This document shows, in pieces, positions 41,576-63,540 of a stretch of DNA of 64,000 nucleotides. Made by a program: the position numbers and the translations under genes. How positions within the stretch are numbered: position 1 is the first letter of the stretch; each line of letters starts with the position of its first letter. The DNA lies in contig CAKSCM010000009.1 in assembly GCA_934444365.1 (NCBI GenBank), positions 1-64,000 on the forward strand. Direction: 5' to 3'. Source of the DNA: an uncultured Eubacteriales bacterium. GTDB taxonomy: Bacteria > Bacillota > Clostridia > Oscillospirales > Acutalibacteraceae. The notes beneath the pieces are model-generated. The model was not told where the DNA came from, did no database searches, and was given only the letters and a program-made list of their open reading frames with translations.

Positions 41576-41619
41576 GTCCTCCTACCGCTGCACTGATACA
41601 GCCGGTTTGTTATCGGCCG

Positions 41620-42435
41620 TTATTTCCCGGATGCGGAATTTGTCTTTAGCTTTTTCTCGTTGCGATTCTGCCGGACATTTATCAGTATAAGCAGCACGAG
41701 CACCACGACAAAAAGTATTGTCGAAAGGGCGTTTATGTCCGGACGAACACGTTTTTTGGTCATGGAATAAATCCTAAGCGGAAGGGTCTGAAAGCCCGGA
41801 CCGCTGACAAAATAGCTTATTACAAAATCATCGATCGAAAGGGTAAACGACATTATAAATCCGGTGATTATTCCCGGTACGACCGACGGCAAAACCGCCT
41901 TAAAAAAGGCCTTTATAGGGGTGCAGCCGAGGTCCTGAGCCGCCTCGGACAAATACCTGTCGGAGGCCTTAAGCATCGGCAGCACCGAAAAAATAACGTA
42001 GGGTAAATTAAAGGTTATATGAGCTATAAGCACGGTTACAAATCCGAGGGTCGAGGTGTTTTTAAACAGCACACCCACAAAAACAAACAGCAGCATAAGC
42101 GAAACGCCGGTTACTATGTCGGGGTTCATAAGCGGTATATTGGTAACCGCACTGACCGCTTTTTTCTGCCAGCGGTGCATATAGGATATTCCGACCGCCG
42201 CCGCCGTGCCGAGCACCGTTGCGATAACGGCCGACAAAACGGCCACTATAAGGGTGTTGTACAGCGAGCCGATGGTCTGCCTGTCGCGAAAAAGCTCGGC
42301 ATACCATTTAAACGAAAATCCCGTAAAAACTCCGGTGGAATCGCCTTTGTTAAATGAAAAGAAAATCATGACAAGGATAGGAGCATACATCAGGAAAAAA
42401 ATTATGAAAAGATATATCTTAGAGGCTTTTTTCAT
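41620..42435 (-). CDS. potC: ABC transporter permease (PotC-like).
   Basis: Six-TM BPD-transport permease. Its start overlaps the potB stop by 4 bp. Confidence 0.75.
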   Translation of the reverse strand: MKKASKIYLFIIFFLMYAPILVMIFFSFNKGDSTGVFTGFSFKWYAELFRDRQTIGSLYNTLIVAVLSAVIATVLGTAAAVGISYMHRWQKKAVSAVTNIPLMNPDIVTGVSLMLLFVFVGVLFKNTSTLGFVTVLIAHITFNLPYVIFSVLPMLKASDRYLSEAAQDLGCTPIKAFFKAVLPSVVPGIITGFIMSFTLSIDDFVISYFVSGPGFQTLPLRIYSMTKKRVRPDINALSTILFVVVLVLLILINVRQNRNEKKLKTNSASGK

Positions 42436-43256
42436 ACGACCATCGTCTCCCCTTCCCCGTCGGTATACTGGTTCATTATGGCTATGCATATAAAGATCAT
42501 GACCATAAGCACCAGCGACAGCGCCGCGCCGACATTGTAGTTATACTCCCAGTTGAACTTTGTGTCGATAACATCGCCTATAAGCATGAGGTTTCCGCCG
42601 AGCTTCTGGGAAATATAAAAGGTACTTACCGACGGAACAAACACCATGGTAACGCCCGAGGCGATTCCCGGAACACTAAGCGGCAGCACCACTCTTTTAA
42701 AAACCGACATGGCCGAGCCGCCCAGATCCTGAGCCGCCTCGATAAGGTTTTTGTCGATCTTGGTCATGACGGTATAAAGCGGCAGTATCATATACGGAAT
42801 AAAGTTGTAAACCATACCTATAACGACGGCCGCACGGGTGTTTATAACGTGTATAGGACCTATACCGATATACGAAAGCAGGCTGTTTATTATACCGGTA
42901 TCCTCCAGAATGGTCATAAGCGCATAGGTCCTCAGTATAAGATTCATCCACATCGGCAGCATGACAAGCACTATCATTATACGCTGCTTCGATTGCGGCA
43001 TTCGCGATATCATATAGGCTATCGGATATGCGATAACAAGGCTTATAACGGTAGCTACCGCACCCAGCCACACCGACAGCAAAAGGGTGTCGCCGTAATC
43101 CGCAATGGCCGAAATGTTGTTAAGCGTGAAGGCCCCATCGCTGTCGGTAAAGGCATAATAAGCCACCACGCCTAAAGGCACGACTATAAATATTACCGAC
43201 CACAAAAGGTAGGGCGCCGCGCATAGGCGCTGAGCCAAAGTGCGTTTAGCCTTCAA
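42432..43256 (-). CDS. potB: ABC transporter permease (PotB-like).
   Basis: Six-TM BPD-transport permease. Its start overlaps the potA stop. Confidence 0.75.
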
Positions 43257-44431
43257 TTCTTGTCATCCCCTTCGCTTTCTTCGCCCTCTTCGAAAATCTC
43301 GCTCGCTTCCTCCTCGGGAACGTAATCCGGATCGGAAAGATGATCCATTTCCTCGCTGAAGGTGCTGTAATCGCCGAACATTCCGGAATACTCCGATTTT
43401 TTCATAACATGTATATCCTCGGGATTAAGCACAATGCCTATATCATCCCCGACGTTTATACAGTCGGTGGTCTGTATCATCCATTTAAAGCCCTTTATAT
43501 CCACTATTACCTCATAATGGACACCCTTGAAGGTCGATCCGGTAACAATACCCGACAGATGTCCCTTTTCCGGAACGGTAACGTCTATATCCTCGGGACG
43601 TATTACTATGTCGACCGGCTCGTCCTTATCAAAGCCCTTATCGACGCAATCGAAGACCTTGCCGGCAAATTCGCACTTATAATCCTCGCGCATAATGCCG
43701 TCTAAAATATTGCTGTCCCCTATAAAATCGGCGACAAAGGCATTCTCCGGCTCGTTGTAAATATCCTGAGGGGTTCCTATCTGCTGAATTAACCCCTTAT
43801 CCATAACCACAACGCGATCGGACATGGAAAGCGCCTCTTCCTGATCGTGGGTTACGAAAATAAAGGTTATTTTAAGCCGCTGCTGTATTTTTTTAAGCTC
43901 AACCTGCATATCCTTGCGAAGCTTTAAATCAAGGGCTGCAAGCGGCTCGTCAAGAAGCAGTACCTTGGGACTTGTAACCAAAGCGCGGGCTATTGCAACA
44001 CGCTGCTGCTGACCTCCCGAAAGGGTGGCGATCCGCCGCTTTTCAAAGCCCTTTAAGCCGACAAGCTCTATCATCTCGCCGACCTTGCTTTTTATCTCCT
44101 TTTCGGGGAGCTTGCGCACCCTCAGTCCGAAGGCGACGTTCTCGAAAACGTTAAGATGCTCAAACAGCGCATAACGCTGAAATATCGTACATACCTCGCG
44201 CTTATACGGAGGAAGATCGTTGATATTCCGTCCGTCAAAAAAAACATCGCCGCTGTTCTGACTTACAAAACCCGCAATTATCCGAAGGGTAGTGGTTTTG
44301 CCGCAGCCGGAGGGGCCGAGCAATGTAACAAATTCCCCGTCTTTTATTGAAAGACTGATATCGCGAAGAATGGGTTCCGAGTCGAATTCGACGACAATAT
44401 TTTTAAGCTCTATTAAATTTTTGTCGGACAT
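43253..44431 (-). CDS. potA: ABC transporter ATP-binding protein (PotA-like) with an acidic C-terminal tail.
   Basis: Walker [18 protein letters not shown], Walker B LLLDEP. It has a C-terminal TOBE-like domain followed by an [18 protein letters not shown] tail. Confidence 0.8.
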
Positions 44432-44911: not shown

Positions 44912-46192
44912 ATGAATATACTTATAAAAGATGCCGACCGGCTGCTTTTTGAAAACGGGGCCTTTACCGTGTCACGTGGTGATATCTGCATATCAAACGG
45001 TAAAATAACGTCGCTCGATTCGGAATCGGATAATTTTAGGGCCGACAAAATCCTCTCCGGCGACGACCGATTGGTCATTCCCGGTCTTATAAACGCTCAC
45101 ACCCATTCGTATATGGATCTTTTCCGCAACTGTGCCGACGACCTTACCTTTTCCGACTGGCTGTTCGGCAGGGTTATGCCCCTTGAGGACAAGCTGACCT
45201 TTGACGACTGCTATACCGGCGCGCTTCTTGCCTGCGCCGAGATGATAAAAAGCGGTACAACCTGTTTTCTCGATATGCATCCCTTTAAAAACCAGACCGC
45301 AAAGGCAGCGAGGGACACGGGACTGAGAGCGGTAATATCAAGAGGGCTTACCGATTCGCTCGGCGAACAGGCCGGTCTTGACCGTCTTGCCCAGGCCAAA
45401 GAGGAAATGGAAAACTTCAAGGATGAGGAGCTCATAACCTTCATGGCCGCTCCCCACGCCGTTTATACCTGCAGTAAGGAATATCTTATAAAAATACGCG
45501 ATTTTGCCCTTTATGAGAATCTGCCCATAAACATGCATTTAAGCGAGACCGTCGACGAGGTAAAAGGTATCGCTGAGCAGTACGGCTGCTCGCCGGTGGA
45601 ATATGTCGAAAGTCTCGGTCTTTTTGACATTCACACGGTCGCTGCCCATTGCGTTCAGCTGAGCGACCGGGATATATCAATACTGGCCGAAAAAGGCGTT
45701 TATGTCGCCACCAACCCAAAAAGCAATTTAAAGCTTGCCAACGGAATAGCCCCTGTCGACGCACTGCTCAAAAAGGGCGCAAAGGTATGTATAGGAACCG
45801 ATTCGGCGGCCAGCAACAACACCCTTGATATGTTTGAAGAAATGCGATTTGCCGCCCTTTTGCAAAAGGGGGTCACGCACGATCCGACCTCGGCCGACGC
45901 ACAAAGCATTCTAAAAGCCGCAACAATAACCGGCGCCGAGGCGCTCGGCGTAAATTCGGGCGAAATCGCCGTCGGCAAAAACGCCGATTTGGTTATGCTT
46001 GATACATCCGCAATCCCGTTTTGTCCTAAGAGCAATCCCGTATCGGCTCTTGTCTATTCGGTCTCAAAGAGCGAGGTAAAAACGGTCATTGTAAACGGAA
46101 ATATCCTCATGCTCGACGGAGTGCTTACCACAATAGACGAGGCCGCCGTCAAGGAAAAATGCAACAGAATATACGAAAGGATAAACGGTTAA
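44912..46192 (+). CDS. mtaD: 5-methylthioadenosine/S-adenosylhomocysteine deaminase (amidohydrolase) MtaD.
   Basis: Metal-binding INAHTHSYMD motif. 426 aa. Adjacent to ahcY. Confidence 0.8.
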   Translation: MNILIKDADRLLFENGAFTVSRGDICISNGKITSLDSESDNFRADKILSGDDRLVIPGLINAHTHSYMDLFRNCADDLTFSDWLFGRVMPLEDKLTFDDCYTGALLACAEMIKSGTTCFLDMHPFKNQTAKAARDTGLRAVISRGLTDSLGEQAGLDRLAQAKEEMENFKDEELITFMAAPHAVYTCSKEYLIKIRDFALYENLPINMHLSETVDEVKGIAEQYGCSPVEYVESLGLFDIHTVAAHCVQLSDRDISILAEKGVYVATNPKSNLKLANGIAPVDALLKKGAKVCIGTDSAASNNTLDMFEEMRFAALLQKGVTHDPTSADAQSILKAATITGAEALGVNSGEIAVGKNADLVMLDTSAIPFCPKSNPVSALVYSVSKSEVKTVIVNGNILMLDGVLTTIDEAAVKEKCNRIYERING

Positions 46193-46196
46193 ATAA

Positions 46197-47435
46197 ATGA
46201 AAAGCGAAATAAAAGACAAAGGACTTTTCGAAAGCGGAGAGCTTAAAATAAAATGGGCATACGATCATATGCCGCTGCTTAAAAGCATTGAAAAGGATTT
46301 TGCGAAAGACAAGCCCTTTGACGGCAAAAAAATCGCCCTTTCGGTACATCTTGAAGCTAAAACGGCCGTTTTGTGCCGGGTGCTCGCCACAGGCGGCGCC
46401 GAGATGTACGTCACGGGCAGCAACCCCCTTTCAACCCAGGATGATATTGCGGCCGCTCTCGTAAAGGGCGGAATGAATGTGTTTGCACTCCACGGTGCAA
46501 CCGATGAGCAATATGAGCGCCATATGAGGGAGGTTTTATCGGTCGGCCCCGACATAATAATCGATGACGGCGGCGACCTCGTCCATTTAATGCATACACG
46601 GTTCAGGGAGCTGTTGCCCAAGGTTTTGGGCGGATGCGAGGAGACGACCACCGGAATAACAAGGCTTAAAAAAATGCAGAAAAACGGCGAGCTTGAGTTC
46701 CCGATGATGAACGTAAACGACGCCGACTGCAAGCATCTTTTCGACAACCGATACGGAACCGGCCAGTCGGTCTTTGACGGAATCGACAGAACCACCAACC
46801 TCATAATAGCCGGAAAAACCGTTGTTGTCGCCGGATACGGATGGTGCGGCAAAGGCGTCGCCATGAGGGCAAAGGGACTGGGCGCCTCGGTAGTAGTCAC
46901 CGAAATCGACCCGATAAAGGCAATCGAAGCGGTTATGGACGGCTTTAAGGTAATGTCGATGGATGACGCCGCCGTAATAGGCGATCTTTTTATAACGGTC
47001 ACCGGCTGCTGCTCGGTAATAACAAGCCGGCATTTTGAAAAAATGAAGGATTCGGCAATACTCTGCAACGCCGGCCATTTTGACGTTGAGGTCGATGCGG
47101 CCGCTTTAAGAAAAGCGGCGAAGGACCGCTACGAGGCAAGACAGAATATCGAATGCTTTGTAATGCCAAACGGCAACAAGCTTTATCTTCTGGCCGGAGG
47201 ACGGCTCGTAAACCTTGCCGCCGGCGACGGCCATCCGGCCGAAATAATGGATATGAGCTTTGCCATACAGGCCCTTTGCGCCGAATACATAGCAAAGAGC
47301 AAGGCCGGCGGACGTCCGGGCGTTCACAGCGTTCCGCATGAAATCGACCAAAAGGTCGCCTCATTAAAGCTCGGCTTTCTCGGGGCAAAAACCGATATAT
47401 TAACGCCCGAGCAAGCCGAATATCTCGGTCTTTAA
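46197..47435 (+). CDS. ahcY: Adenosylhomocysteinase.
   Basis: SAH hydrolase NAD-binding region (GYGWCGKG). 412 aa. Confidence 0.9.
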   Translation: MKSEIKDKGLFESGELKIKWAYDHMPLLKSIEKDFAKDKPFDGKKIALSVHLEAKTAVLCRVLATGGAEMYVTGSNPLSTQDDIAAALVKGGMNVFALHGATDEQYERHMREVLSVGPDIIIDDGGDLVHLMHTRFRELLPKVLGGCEETTTGITRLKKMQKNGELEFPMMNVNDADCKHLFDNRYGTGQSVFDGIDRTTNLIIAGKTVVVAGYGWCGKGVAMRAKGLGASVVVTEIDPIKAIEAVMDGFKVMSMDDAAVIGDLFITVTGCCSVITSRHFEKMKDSAILCNAGHFDVEVDAAALRKAAKDRYEARQNIECFVMPNGNKLYLLAGGRLVNLAAGDGHPAEIMDMSFAIQALCAEYIAKSKAGGRPGVHSVPHEIDQKVASLKLGFLGAKTDILTPEQAEYLGL

Positions 47436-50496: not shown

Positions 50497-51363
50497 ATGT
50501 TTTCACTTATGCGTAAAAGTGTATCCGTATTAACCGCCGCGCTTATAATAATATCCCTGCTTGTGTCAGGGGCAATTTATTCGCTTGCAACCGAAAGCTC
50601 AGTCTCGTCCGAGACCGAGCCGAGCGAAACCTCGAGCGAGATTTCCGACGTAAGCTCGGATGATAACGGTTCCGACACAAGCTCCGATGACAATAATTCA
50701 AGTGATACCGACCCGTCCGACACATCATCCGACAACACTTCGGATGATGAATCCTCGCACACCTCAAGCGAGAGCAGTTCGAGAACATCCTCACGCGAAG
50801 AGCCGTCCGAGACCTCCTCGCGCCACTCATCGAGCAATCAAAGCTCATCGTCTTCAAGGAGCAACAGCAGCACCACATCCTCAAGGAGCGATTCGGGACG
50901 CACCGAAACCTCCTCTGATGACGACGATGACGAGTATTCGAGAAACACCTCCTCGCGCACCTCGTCAAAAAAGAATAAATCCTCCAAAACGCCATCCTCT
51001 GCCCCCGAGGAATCCTCGGCAGTTGAGAGCAACGTCAAGAATATATCCGACTACGGAAAAACCGGCAAAACAATGCTTCTGATATCGGCCATTGTTGCGG
51101 TAGCCGCAGCGGCCGCGCTTATTTACATCAACCTCACGGCGCACAAAAGAATAGTTGAGGCACGCAATCGTGCACAAAGAAAGGCGAAAATCGCCGCATA
51201 TAACGCCCGCGCCCAGAAGGAAACAAAGCAGAAAAAGTCCGACGATTATGATTTCGACGGTTATAATACCGACAATTCCTCCGATGATGGACGTTTCAGC
51301 ATGAATCAGAATGACTTTGACTTCGGCGACGATTTCCTTATAAATAAGGATAAGAAAAAATAA
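50497..51363 (+). CDS. Ser/Asp-rich low-complexity membrane-anchored protein (hypothetical).
   Basis: Signal/TM N-terminus and ~150 aa of S/D/T/E repeats. Then a second TM and a basic/acidic C-terminal tail. An alternative start lies at 50509. Confidence 0.5.
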   Translation: MFSLMRKSVSVLTAALIIISLLVSGAIYSLATESSVSSETEPSETSSEISDVSSDDNGSDTSSDDNNSSDTDPSDTSSDNTSDDESSHTSSESSSRTSSREEPSETSSRHSSSNQSSSSSRSNSSTTSSRSDSGRTETSSDDDDDEYSRNTSSRTSSKKNKSSKTPSSAPEESSAVESNVKNISDYGKTGKTMLLISAIVAVAAAAALIYINLTAHKRIVEARNRAQRKAKIAAYNARAQKETKQKKSDDYDFDGYNTDNSSDDGRFSMNQNDFDFGDDFLINKDKKK

Positions 51364-53303: not shown

Positions 53304-53340
53304 AACGGGTCCGTTTATTTTAAAAACGGGCCCGTTTTTG
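53304..53340. terminator. Bidirectional terminator region with two near-palindromic hairpins (acgggtccgt; acgggcccgt followed by TTTTT).
   Basis: Seen in sequence between the convergent DUF47 and TIM-barrel genes. Confidence 0.55.
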
Positions 53341-53405: not shown

Positions 53406-54149
53406 TTATTCAACCAACTGCTTTATGCAATCGATATCCTTTATAAAATTATCGTCCTCGTCGTCCTTTACAAACTCGAGAATAAAATTGCACTCATCAT
53501 GCGCTGCCTTTACTCGGCTTATGAATTTCTGCCATTTTTCGGTTCCCTCGCTCATGAGAAAACGCTGTCCCCTATCGTCCCAGTTAAAAACGTGCACCGT
53601 TACGATATAGTCGAGGACCTTCGATAAATTCTTGTCGTCGGTCCCGTCGGAAAAAGGCTGCCAGTAGGTCTTAACATTCGGTTTATTAACCTTGTTTATA
53701 AGACGGACGGTGTTCTCTCCGCAATCGTTAAAGGTAACGTGGTGGAACTCAAAGCCGATAGTTACAGAATACTTTTGCGCAATATCGGCCATTCGCGAGA
53801 CCTCATCGCACAGCGCGAGAAATTCTTCCTCGCTTGTTTCGGCAGAGGCTTTAAGCCCGAGCCAGACGCGAACGATTCTCGCTCCCAGTATATCGGCCGT
53901 TTTGCAAACCCTTTCAAAGGCGGCCATGTCGTTAAAGCCTACCCTGTAGTAGCTGCCATAGGAAACGCTCTTTATGCCGGCCGCATCGCAAAGTGCGCGT
54001 ACGCGCTTCGCGTTTTCCTCGTTATCGGGCGGAACATGAACGTCTCCTCCCCATTCAATGCAGTTTATTCCGGCTTTTTTTGCAATATCAATTATTTCCT
54101 CAACGCTTTTTTTTCTGAAGGTAACGGTCGTAAAGCCTATGTTGTACAT
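53406..54149 (-). CDS. Xylose-isomerase-like TIM-barrel protein (sugar phosphate isomerase/epimerase).
   Basis: 247 aa with XI/AP-endonuclease-2-like TIM-barrel features. Confidence 0.7.
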   Translation of the reverse strand: MYNIGFTTVTFRKKSVEEIIDIAKKAGINCIEWGGDVHVPPDNEENAKRVRALCDAAGIKSVSYGSYYRVGFNDMAAFERVCKTADILGARIVRVWLGLKASAETSEEEFLALCDEVSRMADIAQKYSVTIGFEFHHVTFNDCGENTVRLINKVNKPNVKTYWQPFSDGTDDKNLSKVLDYIVTVHVFNWDDRGQRFLMSEGTEKWQKFISRVKAAHDECNFILEFVKDDEDDNFIKDIDCIKQLVE

Positions 54150-54185
54150 ATTTTTCTCCTCCTTGATTGAGCCTTTGCGGTTTTG

Positions 54186-55181
54186 TCAGGCCATGGTTTT
54201 AAGCATGTCTAAAGTAACCGAATATTTAGGCTCTCCCCCAGATGTTATGCGCAAAAACTCATCGATCATCCAGTCGGCCAGACGGTTGCGCTCGTTACCG
54301 ATGCTGCCGGCTATATGTGGCGTGATTATAACGTTCGGGCATTCGCAAAGCGGGCTGTCTTTTTTAACGGGCTCGGGCCATGTAACGTCAAGAAGGGCTG
54401 TCAGCGACGGGTTTTTCTTCATAGCCTCAGCTAAATCCGCCTCGTTCACCTGAGCGCCCCGACCAGTGTTTATAAAGGTCGAGCAGGGCTTCATTCTTGA
54501 AAAAAGCGACAGATTATATATGCCGTTTAGTTCCTGCTTGTTGGCGAGATGGTTGGTTATGACGTCGCAGCTTTCGAATATTTCCTCAAGGCTTACAAGG
54601 GTGATGCCAAGTTCATCGGCGCGCTCCTTCGGTAAGAATTTATCAAAGGCATACACCTCACACTCGGTGCTCTTAAGCCGCTCGCACACCATTGAGCCTA
54701 TGGCGCCGACTCCGCATACGCCGACTTTGGCCTTGTATGATCCCTTTAAATCGTAATCGAAGCCGGCGGGAAATACGTTGTGCTTCGGGTAGTTCTGGGT
54801 GCTGAAAAAGCCTTTTAGCGCCAGCATTATCTGAGCAAAGGTATATTCGGCTACCGGTATTCCGTTTGCAACCCATGCGCTCGACACGAAAATTCCGTTT
54901 TCCAAAAACTCCTTTGCAAAGCCCTGAACACTGCCGGCGGCATAAAGCACCGCTTTAAGGTTCGGGAAGCATTTTTTTATTTCCTCGTCCGAAAAACGCG
55001 GCATACCCCAGGTTGAAAACAGATACTCGGTATCGGCCGATATCGACGGATCGTGCATGAGCTCGCTCTTTGTGTAAACGCCGTCGCAAAGCTCGCTGTT
55101 CGCCTGCAGCCTGCCTACCTGAGCCTTTGCGTAAACGGCTTTTGCCGCGTCCTTATTATCGGAAAAAATCATGGTTTTCAT
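54186..55181 (-). CDS. D-isomer-specific 2-hydroxyacid dehydrogenase family (NAD-dependent).
   Basis: Rossmann segment GVCGVGAIGSMV and the catalytic TPHIAGS region. Confidence 0.8.
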   Translation of the reverse strand: MKTMIFSDNKDAAKAVYAKAQVGRLQANSELCDGVYTKSELMHDPSISADTEYLFSTWGMPRFSDEEIKKCFPNLKAVLYAAGSVQGFAKEFLENGIFVSSAWVANGIPVAEYTFAQIMLALKGFFSTQNYPKHNVFPAGFDYDLKGSYKAKVGVCGVGAIGSMVCERLKSTECEVYAFDKFLPKERADELGITLVSLEEIFESCDVITNHLANKQELNGIYNLSLFSRMKPCSTFINTGRGAQVNEADLAEAMKKNPSLTALLDVTWPEPVKKDSPLCECPNVIITPHIAGSIGNERNRLADWMIDEFLRITSGGEPKYSVTLDMLKTMA

Positions 55182-55386
55182 TTTTTATTCCTCTTTTCCC
55201 AAAATAAAAAGCTCAAAGTATTGTACCGGCAAAACCGCTGTTCTCCTGAAAAAATATTGTTTTTAGTCAGACGTGCCGAAAAAACAGATATGCTGCCGCA
55301 TTTCAAAGTTTTTTAGGGGCGTATGACGGAAAAAGAACGATTCTTGAGAGGTTTATCCCTACGCGGTACAACACAAGACTTAAAAC

Positions 55387-57351
55387 TCAATAAACGTTTC
55401 GGTTTTCGCGGTAGCCGCGCCAGACATTCTCAAAAAAGCCTCCGCCGTCGGGAAGGGCTCTTACATCCCGCCATCCGACAAATGCCTTAAGGTTTCCCTC
55501 TAAAGCCACCTGTTCCACCATTTTGTCAAGCGCGCCGTCGTCGGGGATGAATCTGAATATATCCTCAAGTCCGTCCGGCTTTACGCCGTTTTCGTTTGTG
55601 TAAAGGGCCGAGCCGCGCGACTTTCCGCCCTTTTCGGAATATCCGGCAAAGGCCGTAAGATAAACATACTGAGCCGCCAGCGTGTCACGCAAACGATAAA
55701 GCATTCTGAGTGCTTCGGGCGAGCTTACTCCGGCGTTATCAAGTAAAACGAGCTCCTCTTTTACCTTAACGGCATATTCGCCGATGGCTTTGGGCGAACG
55801 TATGGCCCCGGCACATTCGCTCATTGATTTGCGTGCCTTTTTAAGCTTCATTACGGCGCTGTCGCCGCCGTTTTCAAGCACCCTTTCGCAAAGCGCAATA
55901 TGAAATCTTAACTTTTTATCGGCGGCGGCGAAAAATTCATCGTCGCGCGACGGCTCATTGGGCCTTGCGGCGATGTATGAGGCCGCTCTTAATGATCCGA
56001 CCTGACCGGCGTTAAGAGCGCTTCCGCCCGGACGGTATACACCGTGTGTTCCGGCACATTCTCCGGCCGCAAAAAGCCCCTTTATATCGGTCTGCCACCA
56101 CATATCAACCGCTATTCCGCCGTTATTATGCTGTGCGCAAAGCGAAATTTCAAGCGGCTGCCTCGTTATATCGACTCCCTTCGATCTGTAAAGCTCGACC
56201 GCCGGCATATTCATATGCGAAAGTCGCTCAATCGGAGTGCCGAAATCGGCTCCGGCATTTTTGAGATAATCCCTTGCCTCATCGCTTAAATCGCCAAAAG
56301 GAATCTCTTTGAGTCCGAACGGATTACGGGTGAAATCAAGAAATACCCTCCTGCCACGCATGAACACCTCGCGGTAAACAAGCAGATCTATAACCGACGA
56401 GCCGTTTTGCGCCTTTCGGCTGTCAAAGGGCCATTCATAGCCCTTTTTAAACACCATGGAAAGGGCCTTGGCGTCATCGGAATAGTATTCGCTTAAAAAC
56501 TCATATTCATTGCCCTGCTCGTCACGGGAGAAAAATCTCGGCAGTACCTGCATATAGGTTCCCGAAACATTCCAGCGCGGGGCGATTGATGCGAGTCCGT
56601 ACTGCCATTCGGTAAGATTCTGTCCCTTTGCTCCGGCCAAAAACGCCACTCCCGAGGCACCGGCATGTCCCACCGGATAAACGGTATCGCTGTAAATTCC
56701 GGCCGGTCCTCCGGTTGCATAGATTATATCATGCGCTTTAAAAAGGGTAAAGCGCGTGTTTTTATCGTCTGCCCCGTCCAAATTGAGACAAAGCACACCG
56801 AGCGCTTTGTTATTATCGGTTATAATCTCGATTACCTGCTGCTTGTCAAAAACGGTGACATCGCGGCGCAAGGCCTCCTTTTGCAGACATTCGGTCATCA
56901 TTTTAGAGGTAAGCGGACCCACCGACGTGGCTCTGGCCCGTGTATCGTGGTCGGTTTTATAGCCGACGTATTCGCCGAAGTTATTCACCGGGAAATCCAC
57001 CCCGAGCTCGCAAAGCGACAAAAAGCAGCGCACCGAATTGGCCGCTTCTGCAAGAGCATTGTCGCCGTCAACGCATTTGCCGGCAAAAAGCTCCGATGCC
57101 ATTGAGTGGGGAGAATCGTCGTCCGCCGCGCAAAGGTTCATTTTGTAGTAGGTCTGCTTGTCCGAACCGGTATTGCGCGAGGTTCCCATGTCGACCCCCT
57201 CGGTGATTATTGCAATATCGTCCACCCCGAGCTTTTTAAGCTGAACGGCCGCATTGTAGCCGGCGGCTCCCGTTCCGATTATTGCCGCGTCAAGGGTAAC
57301 GGTTTTTATGTTTATTCCGTCAAAGCTGTGTATTTCGGTCTTCATGTACAT
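55387..57351 (-). CDS. FAD-dependent oxidoreductase of the fumarate-reductase/succinate-dehydrogenase flavoprotein family, with a ~200-aa C-terminal extension.
   Basis: N-terminal dinucleotide fold IIGTGAAG. SdhA-like RPGGSALNAG motif. 654 aa. Confidence 0.7.
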   Translation of the reverse strand: MYMKTEIHSFDGINIKTVTLDAAIIGTGAAGYNAAVQLKKLGVDDIAIITEGVDMGTSRNTGSDKQTYYKMNLCAADDDSPHSMASELFAGKCVDGDNALAEAANSVRCFLSLCELGVDFPVNNFGEYVGYKTDHDTRARATSVGPLTSKMMTECLQKEALRRDVTVFDKQQVIEIITDNNKALGVLCLNLDGADDKNTRFTLFKAHDIIYATGGPAGIYSDTVYPVGHAGASGVAFLAGAKGQNLTEWQYGLASIAPRWNVSGTYMQVLPRFFSRDEQGNEYEFLSEYYSDDAKALSMVFKKGYEWPFDSRKAQNGSSVIDLLVYREVFMRGRRVFLDFTRNPFGLKEIPFGDLSDEARDYLKNAGADFGTPIERLSHMNMPAVELYRSKGVDITRQPLEISLCAQHNNGGIAVDMWWQTDIKGLFAAGECAGTHGVYRPGGSALNAGQVGSLRAASYIAARPNEPSRDDEFFAAADKKLRFHIALCERVLENGGDSAVMKLKKARKSMSECAGAIRSPKAIGEYAVKVKEELVLLDNAGVSSPEALRMLYRLRDTLAAQYVYLTAFAGYSEKGGKSRGSALYTNENGVKPDGLEDIFRFIPDDGALDKMVEQVALEGNLKAFVGWRDVRALPDGGGFFENVWRGYRENRNVY

Positions 57352-57359
57352 TCCCCTTT

Positions 57360-58127
57360 TTACAGCCGCTGAATATGGAAACCGCCGTCAACGTCTATCG
57401 ACTGGCCGGTAGTATATCCGAAACGATCCGAACAGAGGGCTCCTATAACCTTGGCAACGTCCTCGGGATATCCCCAGCGTTTTATCGGAAGGAGTCCGCC
57501 GTCAATAAGATCGTCATACTTTTTCTTTACGGTCGAGGTCATGCCGGTTGCGATTATGCCCGGTCTTATCTCGTTTACGATTATTCCCTCGCTTGCAAGA
57601 CGGTCGGCAAAAAGGGTGGTTATCATGGAAACGCCGGCTTTTGAGATGCAGTATTCTCCGCGGCTTACCGAGCTTGTATATGCCGACATGGACGATATGT
57701 TAACAATATATCCGTGAATATCTTCGGTTCGGGGTCTTTCAAGCATTTTCTTTGCGACCGCCTGGGTTAAAAACATGGTCGCCTTGGTGTTTACGCCCAT
57801 TACCCTGTCGTAGCTTTCCTCGGTCATTTCGAGGATATCGGCGCGCACCTTTGGCGCTATGCCGGCGACGTTTACAAGAGCGTCAATACGGCCGAATTTT
57901 TCCAAAGTACGGTCGATAAAGCGCTGTCTGTCGTCGGATTTTGAAAGATCGCCGACGGTATAAAGCACCCGGTCCTTCATTTCGCCTAAACGGTCGTTTG
58001 CCGTATTTTCGTCAAGCATATCAAAGGCCGATACGTCGTATCCGTCCGATATAAGCTGCTTTACGGCAGCAAATCCGATACCGCCCATAGCCCCCGTTAT
58101 CATTGCGCATTTTTTCATTTTTATCAT
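57360..58127 (-). CDS. Short-chain dehydrogenase/reductase (SDR).
   Basis: TGAMGGIG cofactor motif and the catalytic YxxxK (YCISK). Confidence 0.85.
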   Translation of the reverse strand: MIKMKKCAMITGAMGGIGFAAVKQLISDGYDVSAFDMLDENTANDRLGEMKDRVLYTVGDLSKSDDRQRFIDRTLEKFGRIDALVNVAGIAPKVRADILEMTEESYDRVMGVNTKATMFLTQAVAKKMLERPRTEDIHGYIVNISSMSAYTSSVSRGEYCISKAGVSMITTLFADRLASEGIIVNEIRPGIIATGMTSTVKKKYDDLIDGGLLPIKRWGYPEDVAKVIGALCSDRFGYTTGQSIDVDGGFHIQRL

Positions 58128-58194
58128 CCCTTTAAAAGAATTATGTAATCGTAAAATCTACAGTTAAACATTGTTCCTTTTGTATTGCAACAAA

Positions 58195-59511
58195 TTATTT
58201 TTTGCAGTACTGCTTGTAATAAGGCAAATACACCTCAGAATCGCGCACGACGCACCCGGCGACCGTACCGGCGCGCATGAGCTCGGTGCATTTACTGCAC
58301 GCGATGCAGCATTTTTTCTCATCGAAGCAGCCGTTTAAAATGTCGTTCGCGAACTGCTCGTAAGCAAAGGCCTCCCTGCCGAATCCCGCTATATCGGCTA
58401 TTCCCCGCTCTATTACAGCGGCGGCAAGATTGGGAGCGAATTTTCTAAGATAAGAATGTCCGGAGCTTATAACGGTTAAATCCGGATAGGCCTTTTTAAG
58501 GGCTTTAATGCAGTCGAACATCCTGGCAACTCCCTCAAGCGGATGCTCGGGCGGAACATATCCCCCCATATCAAACGGGCGGTTCACATGCGGATTAAAA
58601 TACGGATTTCCGATGGTGAAATCGAGCATTTTAATTCCGAGGTCGTTATGTATTATCCCCACAAGCTTAATCGGCTCGTCAAGATCGGGGGTAATGCTGC
58701 CGTCGTTTTTAACCCCGAATCCGTTCGGATAGGCGAATCCGTCGTAAAGATTAAGCCGCGATGTAATCTTAAAGCTATCATCCTGCTCGCTCAGTGCGTT
58801 TTTAAGGGCGGTAAGGTAAAGCCTTGTACGGTTTTCGAACGATCCGCCGTATTTTCCCGGCCTCTCGTAAGCGGAGCAAAGCTCGCTGAATAAATACCTG
58901 TGACAGCATTTTACATCGGCCGCATCGAAGCCGGCTTCCTTAGCCATGGCGGCCGCCGGACCGAAATGATCGGCCACCGAATCAAGATAATCGTCGCTGA
59001 CAATGGCGCTGTCATCAATAGGATTATTCTTTTCGAATACCGAATTGTGATAGGCTATAAGCGGCTGAGGATAGCCGTTCGGCTTGGCATACCGTCCCGA
59101 ATGGGTCAGCTGACATACAAGATACGGCTCAAAGCCGTTATGCCGCATACATTCCTCTTTAGTATCGTTTACAAGCTTTTTAAATGCGTCTAAATTATCC
59201 TTGTTGATATAAAGCTGGCGCGGATTGGCTCTGCCCTCCTTCATGACGGCGGTTGCCTCTCCCCATATAAGACCGGCGCCGCTTCTCGCAAAGCGCATAT
59301 AGCGCCTGAAGGTTAGCTCATCGGGTTTGCCGTCCGGCGTGCCGTCGCACCCTTCCATCGGCTGTATGGCTATGCGGTTTTTAATGTGCGGTTCGGGGAG
59401 TTCGTTTTTTAAAATGCCGGTATTCTCCGAAAGGGGAATATCCACCGACAGCCTTTGTATTTCGCTTTTTAATTCCTCGTATGTTTTGTAATGATACCGT
59501 TCAAAATTCAT
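58195..59511 (-). CDS. Old-Yellow-Enzyme-like FMN oxidoreductase carrying a FadH-type [4Fe-4S] Cys motif but no C-terminal reductase domain.
   Basis: OYE TIM-barrel motif QLTHSGR. CxxCxxC-x11-C motif (CIACSKCTELMRAGTVAGC). 438 aa. Confidence 0.75.
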   Translation of the reverse strand: MNFERYHYKTYEELKSEIQRLSVDIPLSENTGILKNELPEPHIKNRIAIQPMEGCDGTPDGKPDELTFRRYMRFARSGAGLIWGEATAVMKEGRANPRQLYINKDNLDAFKKLVNDTKEECMRHNGFEPYLVCQLTHSGRYAKPNGYPQPLIAYHNSVFEKNNPIDDSAIVSDDYLDSVADHFGPAAAMAKEAGFDAADVKCCHRYLFSELCSAYERPGKYGGSFENRTRLYLTALKNALSEQDDSFKITSRLNLYDGFAYPNGFGVKNDGSITPDLDEPIKLVGIIHNDLGIKMLDFTIGNPYFNPHVNRPFDMGGYVPPEHPLEGVARMFDCIKALKKAYPDLTVISSGHSYLRKFAPNLAAAVIERGIADIAGFGREAFAYEQFANDILNGCFDEKKCCIACSKCTELMRAGTVAGCVVRDSEVYLPYYKQYCKK

Positions 59512-60355
59512 TTAATCCATTGTTCTCCTTACTGTGTGCATTCCTGTATTCACGCGGGGTCAGCCCGGTGTCGTTCTTTAAATAACGCGAAAAATTCCCT
59601 CCGGTCGAAAAGCCGGTCTCCTCGGCGATCTTGGAGGCGCTGAGACTGGTCGAACAAAGCATATCCTTCGCAATCGACAGCCTGTGCTCCGATAAATATT
59701 CCATCACCCCGTAGCCCGTTATCTCCTTAAACAGATGGGAAAGATAGCTTTTTGAAACATGGTGTTTTTTTGCCAGAATGTCAAGGGAATAAAAGGCCGA
59801 ATAGTTATTTTCGAATTCCTTTTGTATATCCTCCACTATTGTGTTTTTTACCGTCGCCTTCATCGGAAAGCTCTCGGGCGAAAAACGGTAAAGGCGGATA
59901 AGCAGAATTCTAAGCAACGATTTTTGCATTTCGTCGACAAAAAGCCCCGACTCCGAATACTCCCTTGCAAGACATTTGAATACCCATTCGATGTCCTCCG
60001 CTATATCCGACACGTCAATAAGGTGATTAAAGAATTCCGGACGGTTCGAAAAAATTGAGCAGATCGTGCTGTTTTTTATCGCATACCGCACCGAAACCGG
60101 TGAAACCTGTATGCAATAGCGCTCGTAATCGTCGGTAAGCGGTTCGACCGAATGCTGTTCGAGATTGCTTATAAAAAATACGCTCTTTTCGCCGACGAAA
60201 TAATCCTTTCCCGAACAGCGGATATGGGCCTTCCCCCGGCGGATATAAAGAATTTCGTGACAATTATGATAATGCACGGCAAAACCGTTGCTTCCCGAAG
60301 CAAAATATGCGGTCTGTATAAGAGAGTTATCCATAACGTATTCCACCTTTTCCAT
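59501..60355 (-). CDS. AraC-family transcriptional regulator (N-terminal cupin sensor plus C-terminal HTH).
   Basis: C-terminal AraC HTH (…HHVSKSYLSHLFKEITG…LSASKIAEETGFSTGGNFSRYLK). Confidence 0.85.
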   Translation of the reverse strand: MEKVEYVMDNSLIQTAYFASGSNGFAVHYHNCHEILYIRRGKAHIRCSGKDYFVGEKSVFFISNLEQHSVEPLTDDYERYCIQVSPVSVRYAIKNSTICSIFSNRPEFFNHLIDVSDIAEDIEWVFKCLAREYSESGLFVDEMQKSLLRILLIRLYRFSPESFPMKATVKNTIVEDIQKEFENNYSAFYSLDILAKKHHVSKSYLSHLFKEITGYGVMEYLSEHRLSIAKDMLCSTSLSASKIAEETGFSTGGNFSRYLKNDTGLTPREYRNAHSKENNGLNEF

Positions 60356-60701
60356 AAAACGGGATCGTTTAACATACTCCTATGCCCATCCATCGTTTAC
60401 AGCATATCACTCGCCGCAACACAAATCAACAAAAAGATGTTTTGATAACAAAAATAGGCACTTTCAGGGCGGTATTGAGCAGTATTGATAATTTTTTTGG
60501 GTGTTTACGTCTTTAAAACCCAACGGGCTCCAAGCGGCCGATTTTGCCCTATAATAACCCGATATTGACATATTGCAAAACGGCAATTGACACACCGATC
60601 TTTATTTATTATATTACATTTAGCGTCATATCAAGCATGCTTTGATACCGGCATAAACAGCAACTAAATTCAATCTCTTTTTTAACGGAGGTAATTTAAA
60701 A

Positions 60702-61556
60702 ATGAGCAATTTTTCAATCGGCGTTTTACTCGATTCCTTCAGATGCGATTTCCCCTCGGCCATGAAAAAGGCCGCTTCGATGGGCATTACCGGTCTTCAG
60801 GTGTATGCCACCGGCGGCGATATGGCGCCCGAAAACATGACCGACGCCAAAATCAGGGACTTTTTGTCCGAGTGCAATGATAACGGACTGACCGTCTCGG
60901 CGCTGTGCGGAGACCTCGGCCAGGGCTTTTCCGACAAGGAGAAAAATCCGGCCCTTATAGCCCGTTCCAAGCTGATACTTGATCTGGCTAAAAAAATGGG
61001 CACCGATATAGTCACGACCCACATAGGCGTAGTGCCCGAGGACGAGCATTGCGACACCTACAAAATAATGCAAGAGGCCTGCTTTGAACTTAGCAGCTAT
61101 GCCGACAGCATCGGCTCGCATTTTGCGGTTGAGACCGGTCCCGAGCCGGCCGAGCGTCTTTGCAGATTTCTCGATACCCTCTCCTCCACCGGCGTTGCGG
61201 TAAATCTCGATCCTGCAAACCTTGTAATGGTAACCGGCGACGATCCCGTAAAGGCGGTATACACCCTTAAAAAATACATCGTTCACACCCACGCCAAGGA
61301 CGGCAAAATGTTAAAACGCACAAATGCAAACGAGATATACTCCGGCGACGCCCAAAGCGATCTCGAAGCACAGGGAGCGGCCTTTATAGAGCTGCCGCTC
61401 GGTCAGGGCGACGTCGATTATCCGGCCTATCTTGCCGCTCTTAAAAGCATAGGCTACAACGGATTTTTGACCATTGAGCGCGAGGTCGGCGAAAATCCCG
61501 ACGCCGACATACGTCTTGCCGCCGACTTCTTACGCGAAAAAATAAGCGAGATGTAA
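60702..61556 (+). CDS. Xylose-isomerase-like TIM-barrel protein (sugar phosphate isomerase/epimerase).
   Basis: 284 aa with XI-like TIM-barrel features. Divergent from the AraC gene. Confidence 0.7.
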   Translation: MSNFSIGVLLDSFRCDFPSAMKKAASMGITGLQVYATGGDMAPENMTDAKIRDFLSECNDNGLTVSALCGDLGQGFSDKEKNPALIARSKLILDLAKKMGTDIVTTHIGVVPEDEHCDTYKIMQEACFELSSYADSIGSHFAVETGPEPAERLCRFLDTLSSTGVAVNLDPANLVMVTGDDPVKAVYTLKKYIVHTHAKDGKMLKRTNANEIYSGDAQSDLEAQGAAFIELPLGQGDVDYPAYLAALKSIGYNGFLTIEREVGENPDADIRLAADFLREKISEM

Positions 61557-61734
61557 GGGTTAACTGCTTCCTGTTTTCCCGCAAAAGCAGTAATAAGTGC
61601 ACGATATGCAGTATATCGTGCACTTTTTTTGTGTTGTTTTCAAAAGGGCTTTGTGGTATTTTTAAATGGTATGAGTGTTGCGCCCGATAAATAAGAAGCA
61701 ATCATCCGGCGCAATACCAAGGAGGGTAAAATTA

Positions 61735-63540
61735 ATGACCGATCTCGAAAAAATAAAACTAAAATATACCGACTGTCTGTTTATATCCCAAAAGGGCACT
61801 TGCGACATTTTGCCGATAAAGGCGGAGGGCTCGCTTAAATTCGCCGATGTCGACTACGAGGACAAGACCCTTTCGGAATGGAAAACGCCCGAGCATTTGC
61901 GCCGCGCCTGCAAAATTGCGGCCTCAGGCGGAAAAGAAAAGCTTAAAAACGATAAGGAATTCCGGGATACAGTACTTTCCCTTTTTAATTTCTGGCTTAA
62001 AAACGATTTTACAAATCCCAACTGGTGGCATAATCAGATAGGAGTTCCCCGTCTTGTATCATATCTCTGCCTGTTTTTAAGGGATTATCTGAGTGACGAG
62101 CAAAAGGAAATGTGCGAAAAAATACTGCTTCGCGGCTCGCTCGGAGGAAACGCTGCAATAAACTCCTGGACCGGGGCCAACCTTATGTGGGGAATATTCG
62201 GGACGGTAAACCATGCGCTTATAAGTGATAACAGCGAGCTTTTAAAAACGGCCGTTGACCGCGCCATGCGCGAGGTTGATATAATGGATGGATTAAAAGA
62301 GGGAATAAAGCCCGATATGTCCTTTTATCAGCACGGACCGATGATATACACCTACGGATACGGACGGGATTTTACGCACGACTGCGCTCTGCTTTTTTAC
62401 ATTCTCTCCGGAACCGAATTCATGCCGTCACAGGAAAAGACCGGCCTGTTCGAGGATTTTATTCTCGACGGCAGCAGATGGTTCGCCTGCCATAGCTTCG
62501 CCGATTACATGACCGTAGGACGTGAGATATCAAGAAAAAATGCCCTGTCGCTTGAAAAAATCGCATTTGCCTTAAAGCTGATGACCGAAACCGCCGAATA
62601 TAAAAGGAAGGACGAGATTTCCTCCTTTTACCGGTCGCTTACCGATAAATCCGCCCCTCAGATAACCGGACTTCGCGAGTTTAAAAACTCATATATGATA
62701 GTTTCGAGAACGAATAACACCTACATGTCGGCCAAAGGGGCGCACAAGGACTATCTTTGCTGTGAAGCCGGCAACTACGAAAACTATCTTTCGGCAAACT
62801 ATTTTTCGGGACAAACCGTTTGCTTTATGTCAAAGGGCGACGAATACTTCAATTTATCGCCGGTATACGATTACTCGGTCATTCCCGGAGTAACCGCATT
62901 TTTGCAAAACGACGAAAAGCTGCTTGAGCGCATGGGTAATTACGCCCACTGGATCAACGAAAAAGGGAAAACCGACTGTTTCGGATTAAAATGCAAAAAC
63001 GGTATCGGCGTAATGGCAATGGAAATTGTAAACGACGGCATAACCGGTTATTGCTCGAGAATTACCAAAAACGGGAACATGCTTTTGCTCACAAGCTCAA
63101 TAAACGCCGGAAACGACTGCTGCCAGAATGTAGTAACGGCGGTCGATCAGTGCCGTCTGCGGGAAAACTGCACCGTAAAAACCGGCGAAAAACAGCTGAT
63201 TTTAAAGGGATCAAGCGTTACAAACGGAGCCTTTACCTATACAAATCTTTCGGATACGCCCCTTTTCGCCGAGGCAATAAATGCAAAGGGCAACTGGAAG
63301 CGCAACAATCTTGACATGACGACCGATCCGGTCGAAACCGGCGTTTTCAAGCTGTATTTCGAACACAAAAAGGCCCCGTCGAACGCCTCGTGTGCGGTTC
63401 TGGTAAGCGAAAACGGCAGTGAGATGCCGTTTGATGTATCGGATGTAACCCTCCTTCAAAACTGTCACTCGGTAAAAATTTCTCCCGATGTAAAAATCGA
63501 CATCGCTTTCGAAGGCGAGCAGTGTGAGATCAATTTTTAA
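61735..63540 (+). CDS. Polysaccharide-lyase-like protein (heparinase II/III or PL8-like). It has an N-terminal alpha-toroid with an NWWH motif and a C-terminal beta-sandwich region.
   Basis: Start set at the ATG with AAGGAGGG RBS. N-terminal helical region with PNWWHNQ. C-terminal beta-rich ~250 aa. Family assignment is tentative. Confidence 0.45.
   Translation: MTDLEKIKLKYTDCLFISQKGTCDILPIKAEGSLKFADVDYEDKTLSEWKTPEHLRRACKIAASGGKEKLKNDKEFRDTVLSLFNFWLKNDFTNPNWWHNQIGVPRLVSYLCLFLRDYLSDEQKEMCEKILLRGSLGGNAAINSWTGANLMWGIFGTVNHALISDNSELLKTAVDRAMREVDIMDGLKEGIKPDMSFYQHGPMIYTYGYGRDFTHDCALLFYILSGTEFMPSQEKTGLFEDFILDGSRWFACHSFADYMTVGREISRKNALSLEKIAFALKLMTETAEYKRKDEISSFYRSLTDKSAPQITGLREFKNSYMIVSRTNNTYMSAKGAHKDYLCCEAGNYENYLSANYFSGQTVCFMSKGDEYFNLSPVYDYSVIPGVTAFLQNDEKLLERMGNYAHWINEKGKTDCFGLKCKNGIGVMAMEIVNDGITGYCSRITKNGNMLLLTSSINAGNDCCQNVVTAVDQCRLRENCTVKTGEKQLILKGSSVTNGAFTYTNLSDTPLFAEAINAKGNWKRNNLDMTTDPVETGVFKLYFEHKKAPSNASCAVLVSENGSEMPFDVSDVTLLQNCHSVKISPDVKIDIAFEGEQCEINF

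Follow-up and report, generated by a model that had tools for sequence, protein, structure and literature searches.

An OYE-SDR-flavoprotein module of Clostridia and its probable role in sugar-acid catabolism

The stretch of DNA analysed here, referred to as the window, comprises 64,000 nucleotides of contig CAKSCM010000009.1 from an uncultured Eubacteriales bacterium. At positions 53406-63540 it contains eight genes, three of which code for the core of a conserved module: a short flavoprotein belonging to the old yellow enzymes (OYE), a short-chain dehydrogenase/reductase (SDR) and a flavoprotein resembling FrdA and SdhA, designated the FAD protein. OYE and the FAD protein quite probably form one redox enzyme, which is read as an FMN-[4Fe-4S]-FAD system, and the module probably belongs to the catabolism of sugar acids or uronates. 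No characterised pathway accounts for it, and a literature search retrieved neither a description of the module nor a paper linking OYE with heparinase-like lyases or unsaturated uronates. As an explanation of the whole, a module for the cytoplasmic breakdown of uronate-containing oligosaccharides, including a flavin/iron-sulfur reduction step, is put forward tentatively, and the assignment of an unsaturated uronate as the substrate has to be regarded as doubtful.

The genes were called by combining the listing of open reading frames with profile searches of the window proteins in Pfam and NCBIfam. An earlier note on this DNA had described two TIM barrels of the xylose isomerase type, a D-2-hydroxyacid dehydrogenase, an FrdA/SdhA-type flavoprotein, an SDR, an OYE-like reductase, an AraC regulator and a lyase-like protein, and every one of these genes was found at the position given there. 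Six are tightly packed on the minus strand, and two are located on the plus strand, divergent from araC:

53406-54149, minus strand: TIM247, an AP_endonuc_2 TIM barrel of 247 amino acids and the last gene of the operon (PF01261, E 1.5e-21)
54186-55181, minus strand: HADH, a member of the D-2-hydroxyacid dehydrogenase family, 331 amino acids (PF02826, 2-Hacid_dh_C, E 6.5e-43)
55387-57351, minus strand: FAD protein, an FrdA/SdhA-like flavoprotein of 654 amino acids and the signature protein of the module (PF00890, FAD_binding_2)
57360-58127, minus strand: SDR, 255 amino acids (adh_short_C2, E 1.6e-49)
58195-59511, minus strand: OYE, a short OYE-family flavoprotein of 438 amino acids (PF00724, Oxidored_FMN)
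59501-60355, minus strand: AraC-family regulator of 284 amino acids with a cupin sensor and HTH_18 (PF12833, PF02311)
60702-61556, plus strand: TIM284, an AP_endonuc_2 TIM barrel of 284 amino acids (PF01261, E 7.4e-33)
61675-63540 (likely start 61735), plus strand: open reading frame of the PL8-like lyase, with Lyase_8_N and Lyase_8 (PF08124, PF02278)

For OYE, a score of 68.1 bits was obtained with PF00724 (cut-off 27), the alignment being limited to residues 42-257, and the protein resembles known OYEs over residues ~40-257 only. The C-terminal half aligned best with the N-domain model of bilirubin reductase, below the cut-off of that model. Near the C-terminus, the motif C402-x2-C405-x2-C408-x11-C420 was identified, which is of the [4Fe-4S] type; its four cysteines are invariant in 26 homologs, and the CxxCxxC...C motif was present in 68/68 OYEs of related loci. 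The polypeptide ends at residue 438, 18 residues beyond the last cysteine, and does not include an NAD(P)H/FAD domain. OYE is the sole Fe-S protein of the operon, and none of the eight proteins matched FMN_bind (PF04205) in Pfam. With the models for BilR, BaiCD and NamA, OYE reached about 70 bits at cut-offs of 425-825. An identity with BilR was rejected on the basis of the NCBIfam models (bili_reduct_N, 70.1 bits versus 425; long form, 71.7 versus 750), as was an identity with BaiCD (66.6 versus 825) or with the mycofactocin OYE (56.5 versus 793).

The FAD protein scored 40-105 bits with the NCBIfam models for NadB, Sdh, Frd and Apr, the cut-offs of which are 450-1100; nadB (104.7 versus 452.75), sdhA_frdA (84.9 versus 567) and TfrA (92.4 versus 718) were each rejected as its identity. 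A model was calculated with AlphaFold (AF2) from 39 homologs (pLDDT 78.6, pTM 0.85), and its best fold matches in Foldseek were FrdA, SdhA and AprA (E 1e-27 to 1e-20, TM 0.6-0.73). By this model, the protein is predicted to have the overall four-domain fold of the FrdA/SdhA type. In a profile alignment, H408 and R440 align with H369 and R404 of Wolinella succinogenes FrdA, a carboxylate-binding pair. The histidine for covalent FAD attachment is absent, and the position of the SdhA 'SH' motif reads TSRN (TSRNTGSDKQ). The capping domain (residues ~250-390) could not be aligned with solved FrdA, SdhA or NadB, which hints at a substrate other than that of the fumarate reductases.

A link between the two flavoproteins came from an exhaustive HMMER search, in which the FAD family comprised 508 clusters at 50% identity (E<=1e-30). 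Here, a natural OYE-FAD fusion of 1084 amino acids, P0407, was identified (L092:8001-11255). Its residues 1-426 correspond to OYE (40% identity, cysteine motif intact) and its residues 440-1082 to the FAD protein (42% identity), the linker comprising ~14 residues. The operon of P0407 further codes for a sodium:solute symporter, a DegT-type aminotransferase, a 329-aa TIM barrel and an SDR which is 47% identical to that of the window. It also holds two proteins of 527 and 770 amino acids, neither of which has a Pfam match. It is because of the invariant cysteine motif, the FrdA/SdhA/AprA fold, the natural fusion and the adjacency of the genes that OYE and the FAD protein are read as probable parts of one enzyme.

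This adjacency was established from genomes of related bacteria. The FAD family was scanned in a collection with one genome per species and was found at no fewer than 596 genomic places (at least), at 50-66% identity; among the matches listed, these are mostly in Oscillospiraceae, Eubacteriales or Clostridia from animal or human guts. Cultured carriers are Ruthenibacterium lactatiformans, Faecalispora jeddahensis and Anaerocolumna. Homologs of OYE and the FAD protein which are ~60% identical are very numerous in metagenome-assembled genomes of Clostridia, under generic names only. For the gene context, the eight window proteins were compared with all open reading frames of 86 loci. The order OYE-SDR-FAD on one strand is near-universal among 80 loci. 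In the 46 full loci, with at least 4.5 kb on either side, the SDR gene is adjacent to the FAD gene in 43 (93%) and the OYE gene in 41 (89%), followed by HADH (21/46), TIM247 (19/46) and AraC (18/46). The AraC homologs beside the module in relatives are usually divergent there. One relative, at 97-99% identity, has the same full arrangement including the PL8-like lyase, whereas the next one, at 65% identity, contains araC-OYE-SDR-FAD-HADH-TIM, a GH4 enzyme and an ABC system for oligosaccharides, without PL8. The region had been proposed to be a single AraC-controlled island of 10 kb, the members of which should be conserved together. This description holds strongly for OYE-SDR-FAD and moderately for HADH, TIM247 and AraC, all of which belong to the minus-strand operon, but it fails for TIM284 and the PL8-like lyase, for which orthologs were present in 0/80 related loci.

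The assignment to sugar-acid catabolism is based on the genes which accompany the module in relatives. Co-directional neighbours were clustered and profiled, giving 132 same-operon proteins, among which Hepar_II_III_C is the commonest family (12/132), followed by GFO_IDH_MocA (6/132). Two clusters, c7 and c27, occurring in 11 loci, match the solved PL33 lyases 8R73, 8R75, 8R6Z and 8R70 over the full length with E 1e-120 to 1e-125. The polymers cleaved by members of PL33 are hyaluronan, heparosan, chondroitin sulfate or gellan, and subfamily PL33_2 comes chiefly from Bacillota (PMC11848413). Another cluster, c49 (3 loci), combines DUF4962 with Hepar_II_III_C, and signal peptides were not found in the lyase-like proteins of the relatives. 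Directly downstream of the FAD gene, 5-7 loci code for a KDPG/KHG aldolase, identified above the NCBIfam cut-off, and a KDG-type PfkB kinase. Further partners in other loci are TRAP, GPH and ABC transporters, GH4, GH30, GH78, GH106-like and GH3 enzymes, and LacI or AraC regulators. The overall context of the module in relatives is that of cytoplasmic sugar-acid genes, most often uronate-related.

Two further families were identified beside the module in these loci. The c8 family, of 554 amino acids, is located right after the module in 8 loci (L047:8700-10364, L034:6637-8313, L054:4107-5771, L067:12907-14571 and L075:9030-10679, with partial copies in L073 and L080). Searches in Pfam, NCBIfam and PDB gave no match for it, a profile comparison showed no similarity to heparinase-like proteins, and it is regarded as a candidate further enzyme of this pathway. 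The second is a 636-aa protein with DUF4964, DUF5127 and a GtaA six-hairpin domain (L007:4752-6662, minus strand; equivalents in L008, L009, L011, L013 and L074), which sits with HADH, divergent from an OYE-SDR-FAD-TIM-PL33 operon. Its reading as 'GH154', a family re-assigned to glucuronate dehydratases, is a lead only, the paper concerned giving no Pfam mapping.

In the window, the place of the PL33-type lyases of other genomes is occupied by the PL8-like lyase. This protein contains both PF08124 (80.9 bits, cut-off 24; E 1.2e-22) and PF02278 (80.8 bits, cut-off 27; E 1.5e-22) and matches chondroitinase AC from Pedobacter (1HM2) with E 4.6e-33. In the alignment with 1HM2, each of its catalytic residues N175, H225, Y234, R288, R292 and E371 is matched by the same amino acid in the lyase. 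It was rejected as a chondroitinase-AC equivalog (149.7 bits versus 1000), it has no match to Lyase_8_C (PF02884), which longer homologs possess, and its homologs outside its own species are 39% identical at most. An N-terminal hydrophobic segment or signal peptide was not identified, and the protein is read as cytoplasmic. Between this lyase and the heparinase-like and c8 proteins of the relatives no sequence similarity was detectable, the resemblance being one of fold class or function only. In two loci containing a PL8-like homolog, a protein of 483-487 amino acids without a Pfam match directly precedes the homolog (L087:8509-9972, L088:8529-9980), and a 278-aa AP_endonuc_2 TIM barrel is encoded a few kb downstream of it in both.

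SDR passed only NF009386, an uninformative model (307 bits, cut-off 250). Its identification as KduD was rejected (TIGR01832, 148.8 bits versus 338.85; NF005390, 143.9 versus 369), and so was that as 7alpha-HSDH (129 bits versus 350). For HADH, no NCBIfam cut-off was reached, and the nearest solved relatives are PGDH and McyI. TIM247 gave only weak matches, to AsbF and IolI. The best solved relative of TIM284 is 3TVA, a structure of unknown function, and IolE was rejected as its identity (32.8 bits versus 290); a distant relative of TIM284 (25% identity) precedes the OYE-FAD fusion in L092. Judged by sequence comparison, HADH, TIM247 and TIM284 are without a close characterised relative. The TIM barrels had been called paralogs, with a third one at 40718-41575 within an ABC-transporter operon of the window. 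The third barrel was confirmed, but close paralogy was not: TIM247 and TIM284 share 30% identity over 81 amino acids (E 0.005), and TIM284 and the barrel of the transporter operon 24% over 276 amino acids, so that they are remote relatives of one another.

In the proposed pathway, imported uronate oligosaccharides would be cleaved by beta-elimination by the cytoplasmic PL8-like lyase, yielding 4,5-unsaturated uronates, which are ring alpha,beta-unsaturated carboxylates. OYE, with FMN and the [4Fe-4S] cluster, would dock with the FAD protein to form an FMN-[4Fe-4S]-FAD electron wire, in which the cluster would replace the FMN_bind relay of known reductases. The OYE flavin would take up electrons from NAD(P)H, and the alpha,beta-unsaturated carboxylate would be reduced at the FAD site; the substrate of the pair may be the 4,5-unsaturated uronate itself, or a keto-deoxy product or enone derived from it. 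SDR, HADH and TIM247 would be involved in aldehyde or keto reduction, 2-hydroxy-acid oxidation and isomerisation leading to a KDG-type 2-keto-3-deoxy acid. Within these steps, HADH may interconvert a 2-keto and a 2-hydroxy sugar acid, and TIM247 may be a sugar-acid isomerase, epimerase or eliminase. The product would be split by a KDG kinase and a KDPG aldolase encoded elsewhere in the genome, and AraC would sense the sugar and turn the operon on. We infer which way the electrons flow, what the substrate is, what SDR, HADH and TIM247 contribute, and a functional link to PL8 and TIM284; alternatively, the electrons could flow in reverse, from a donor at the FAD site to an enone at the OYE site. 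The most specific form of the proposal, a two-component, iron-sulfur-bridged enoate reductase which saturates C4=C5 and provides a reductive route to KDG in place of the hydrolase, KduI and KduD, is considered unlikely. Unsaturated uronates had been one of the substrates named in the earlier note, and this option is consistent with the PL8 neighbour carrying the catalytic residues of chondroitinase AC and with the lyases, KDG-type kinase, KDPG aldolase and transporters of the relatives.

Several points weigh against this explanation. In its free form, an unsaturated uronate opens of its own accord to the keto-acid DHU, so that an ene-reductase would find little to reduce if it did not act on the glycoside. 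Many copies of the module are located among housekeeping genes with no carbohydrate gene nearby, and OYE is missing from 5/46 full loci, which means that the FAD protein can use another partner. SDR matched the KduD models no better than those of many other SDR families. As described above, PL8 and TIM284 are not shared by the related loci; three contexts of PL8 homologs found elsewhere are unrelated and devoid of the OYE-SDR-FAD trio, and within the window the TIM284 and PL8 genes are parted by a terminator-like hairpin. An AraC operator common to the divergent region and the region upstream of PL8 was not recognised, the repeats being short and at chance level. The window contains no KDG kinase, aldolase, IolB/KduI, sugar-acid (TRAP) transporter or GH4. 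Finally, in canonical unsaturated-uronate catabolism an isomerase and an SDR suffice (PMC12838403), which leaves the need for two flavoproteins unexplained.

Among the rival explanations, the reductive degradation of cyclitols or carbocyclic polyol acids such as inositols, quinate or shikimate, with PL8 as an unrelated neighbour, is judged improbable. By this route a dehydrogenase would form a ketone, a TIM-barrel dehydratase would convert it to an enone or enoate, and OYE/FAD would saturate the product. The structure of shikimate, an alpha,beta-unsaturated carboxylate on a ring, is close to that of an unsaturated uronate. A context of this kind was identified in a Tepidanaerobacteraceae locus (L029:3898-12333), with genes for a TIM barrel, a CoA-transferase, an enoyl-CoA hydratase, a MaoC protein, IolB, SDR, the FAD protein and a cupin in this order, so that SDR-FAD directly follows IolB; a TRAP transporter is also present. 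The gene beside SDR was read as KduI in Pfam, which was rejected, since NCBIfam identifies IolB (TIGR04378, 216.9 bits, cut-off 205). The locus looks like an inositol-to-propionate type cluster into which an SDR-FAD pair has been inserted. In L061 (146-10287) and L072, a shikimate-dehydrogenase-like gene lies upstream of SDR-FAD, OYE is absent, and the genes that come next code for a small cupin, a TRAP transporter and a glycyl-radical enzyme of 800 amino acids, which belongs to the PFL2-3 (dehydratase-type) subfamily. GFO_IDH_MocA dehydrogenases in 8 loci and the weak best matches of TIM247 (AsbF/IolI) and TIM284 (IolE) also speak for cyclitols. However, such contexts were found in ~4/80 loci, mostly without OYE, while the commonest accessory family is that of the lyases, and in 5-7 loci the module is succeeded by a KDG-type kinase and KDPG aldolase. 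Moreover, iol and shikimate genes, IolB and PfkB homologs included, are absent from the window, and the published inositol-to-butyrate pathway of Oscillospiraceae (Dysosmobacter) mentions no flavoprotein.

The same low probability is given to a stand-alone reductase which serves as an electron sink for a small unsaturated acid (fumarate-, acrylate-, cinnamate- or aconitate-like), with the carbohydrate neighbours being coincidental. Enzymes combining OYE-like and FAD_binding_2 parts are known to reduce fumarate or acrylate for the regeneration of NADH, the neighbours of the module differ greatly between genomes, and several copies stand amid housekeeping genes with AraC alone beside them. A simple enoate reductase needs no SDR, however, yet an SDR gene is adjacent in 93% of the full loci, and HADH and TIM247 are present in ~40%. 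The accessory genes are overwhelmingly those of carbohydrate or sugar-acid metabolism rather than random, and the fumarate-binding residues of the capping domain do not align.

Somewhat less probable still is the cleavage of glycosides by oxidation and elimination, in which SDR or a GFO-type enzyme would oxidise a sugar hydroxyl, a TIM barrel would eliminate the aglycone, and the resulting keto-glycal enone would be reduced by OYE/FAD instead of being hydrated. Pathways for C-glycosides and levoglucosan, and pathways of Bacteroides, are known to include keto-glycoside lyases with a TIM barrel, and the AP_endonuc_2 barrels of the module come from three subfamilies (TIM247, the 278-aa form and the 329-aa form). 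GFO_IDH_MocA is the second commonest accessory family, GH4, whose chemistry is likewise one of oxidation and then elimination, is found beside three or four loci, and the classical unsaturated-uronyl hydrolase is not among the 25 commonest same-operon families. On the other hand, a TIM barrel is present in ~40% of loci, compared to the near-universal OYE-SDR-FAD, and the need for an FrdA-like protein with a carboxylate-binding pair would be left without an explanation. Nor can any of the TIM barrels here be shown to be related to a characterised keto-glycoside lyase.

The reduction of steroids, bile acids, bilins, flavonoids or cardiac glycosides, several of which had been suggested in the earlier note, is very improbable, even though the equol cluster is built from the same three superfamilies (PMC4965515), which would here act on a lipophilic enone, and although OYE partially matches the bilirubin-reductase and BaiCD models and SDR the one for 7alpha-HSDH: these scores are far under the cut-offs (BilR-N 70/425, BaiCD 67/825, 7alpha-HSDH 129/350), OYE is without the NAD(P)H/FAD domain that DZNR, BaiCD and FadH possess, CoA ligase, CoA transferase, racemase and other bai, cgr or equol partners are absent from the window, the contexts in ~85 loci are carbohydrate-related, and a distribution over at least 596 species with tight sequence conservation fits a common nutrient better than a niche xenobiotic.

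The araC gene heads the operon araC-OYE-SDR-FAD-HADH-TIM247 (60355 to 53406) and overlaps the start of the OYE gene by 11 nt. AraC, which had been called divergent, is therefore divergent from TIM284 and PL8, but not from the redox genes, being the first gene of their operon. For the lyase, the likeliest start is the ATG at 61735 behind AAGGAGG at 61719-61725, giving a protein of 601 amino acids. The following control elements were identified:

53304-53336: terminator-like hairpin separating TIM247 from the PhoU-like gene that converges on it (13-bp stem, 7 GC pairs, T-runs on both sides)
60356-60701: divergent control region of 346 bp between araC and TIM284, with promoter-like hexamers facing both ways
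60587-60615, plus strand: promoter-like site TTGACA-17-TATATT in the divergent region
60578-60551, minus strand: promoter-like site TTGCAA-16-TATTAT in the divergent region
61592-61628, plus strand: strong hairpin and T-run between TIM284 and the lyase gene (16-nt arms, 94% complementary, then TTTTTTGTGTT)

The hairpin at 53304-53336 is predicted to mark the 3' end of the minus-strand operon. The eight genes are flanked by Pit/PhoU phosphate-transport genes and by a gene for a UPF0126-type membrane protein. As described in the earlier note, positions 53406-63540 contain no transporter, kinase or glycoside hydrolase, and the view that the locus is unlike a classical sugar operon was supported. 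Orthology of all its members to one known pathway was not found either.

Elsewhere in the window, the presence of SpoVAD at 33066 identifies the host as a spore-forming Firmicute. At 37766-44431, a pot-like ABC importer was identified, consisting of an ATPase with a TOBE domain, two permeases and a family-8 binding protein. The TIM barrel at 40718-41575, a 285-aa protein of the xylose isomerase type, is embedded in this operon, and an APH-family kinase (37766-38947) is located beside it, just past tRNA-Leu. The combination of importer, TIM barrel and kinase suggests the uptake and modification of a sugar-like compound, not polyamine uptake. At 44912-47435, an amidohydrolase (426 aa) adjoins a protein of the S-adenosylhomocysteine-hydrolase (SAH-hydrolase) family (412 aa), which is likely a nucleoside or SAH salvage unit. 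The open reading frames at 36169-37575 (468 aa) and 50497-51363 (288 aa) have no Pfam match at E<=1e-5.

Three proteins which are each ~60% identical over hundreds of species bear only generic names such as 'FAD-binding protein' or 'flavin oxidoreductase', and they are encoded next to cytoplasmic uronate lyases and genes of the KDG pathway. This points to an unrecognised step in the metabolism of acidic sugars, and to a new wiring of OYE to a fumarate-reductase-type flavoprotein via an iron-sulfur cluster. Human and animal guts are rich in Clostridia of the Oscillospiraceae type, most of which are uncultured, and their use of host glycosaminoglycans and other acidic glycans is poorly known. 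If the proposal is true, thousands of metagenomic genes could be better annotated, and it could be better predicted which gut bacteria consume glycosaminoglycans, gellan-type gums and related glycans. With the natural fusion at hand and few candidate substrates to consider, the hypothesis can be tested directly.

In comparison with known systems, one close likeness of the redox pair is to FRD from Klebsiella pneumoniae and ARD from Vibrio harveyi. In these enzymes an OYE-like domain oxidises NADH, FMN_bind acts as the relay, and an FAD_binding_2 domain reduces the enoate, the carboxylate of which it needs (bioRxiv 10.1101/2022.01.20.477176). An OYE-family FMN module and an FAD_binding_2 module are present in both systems, the latter being proposed to reduce an alpha,beta-unsaturated carboxylate in the module as well, and the natural OYE-FAD fusion shows that a single polypeptide also occurs in the module family. 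However, the relay of FRD and ARD is FMN_bind with covalent FMN, whereas the would-be relay of the module is the [4Fe-4S] cluster at the C-terminus of OYE. The halves of the module are normally separate proteins, SDR is adjacent in 43/46 full loci, and the FAD protein is a full four-domain subunit of the FrdA/SdhA type with 654 amino acids and a capping domain which could not be aligned.

With FadH, the clostridial 2-enoate reductases, BaiCD/BaiH and BilR, OYE shares the succession of an OYE TIM barrel and a [4Fe-4S] cysteine motif. While FadH, the enoate reductases and BaiCD comprise about 640-670 amino acids, OYE stops at 438 and does not have their C-terminal FAD/NAD(P)H domain; its partner is FrdA-like, in contrast to the pyridine-nucleotide-disulfide-type domain or flavodoxin of FadH-type enzymes. 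The FAD protein, in turn, resembles FrdA, SdhA and AprA in its fold and in the active-site histidine and arginine, and those enzymes depend on an Fe-S partner. It is 14-19% identical to them and differs by the absence of the covalent-FAD histidine and by its capping domain. Its operon contains no subunit of the FrdB/SdhB type, OYE being the only Fe-S protein there.

For the pathway as a whole, the reference is the DHU pathway, in which the KduI/DhuI isomerase and the KduD/DhuD reductase are followed by KDG kinase and KDPG aldolase (PMC12838403). Relatives of the module resemble it in having lyases upstream and, in several cases, a KDG-type kinase and KDPG aldolase downstream, and the SDR is found beside an isomerase-type protein, which is a TIM barrel or, in L029, IolB. 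In contrast, KduI/DhuI is missing from the module, its SDR remains under the KduD cut-offs, and its two flavoproteins and HADH are without a counterpart in that pathway. Compared with the chondroitinase AC, hyaluronate and xanthan lyases of PL8, the lyase of the window has both domains of this family and all catalytic residues of the Pedobacter chondroitinase AC, but differs from characterised PL8 enzymes by lacking a signal peptide and the Lyase_8_C domain; PL8 and PL33 share a fold class with no detectable sequence similarity.

The equol cluster comprises DZNR, an OYE, DHDR, an SDR, and THDR, which resembles fumarate reductase (PMC4965515). At the domain level, which is the only one compared, it resembles the module as a trio of OYE, SDR and fumarate-reductase-like protein in gut bacteria. 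However, the OYE of this cluster, DZNR, is long and includes an NAD(P)H domain, the metabolic context is one of isoflavones and not of carbohydrates, and the hosts are Coriobacteriia or Lactococcus. The module described here can be classed as a variant on two known kinds of system, the OYE and FAD_binding_2 enoate reductases on the one hand and the uronate catabolic operons on the other.

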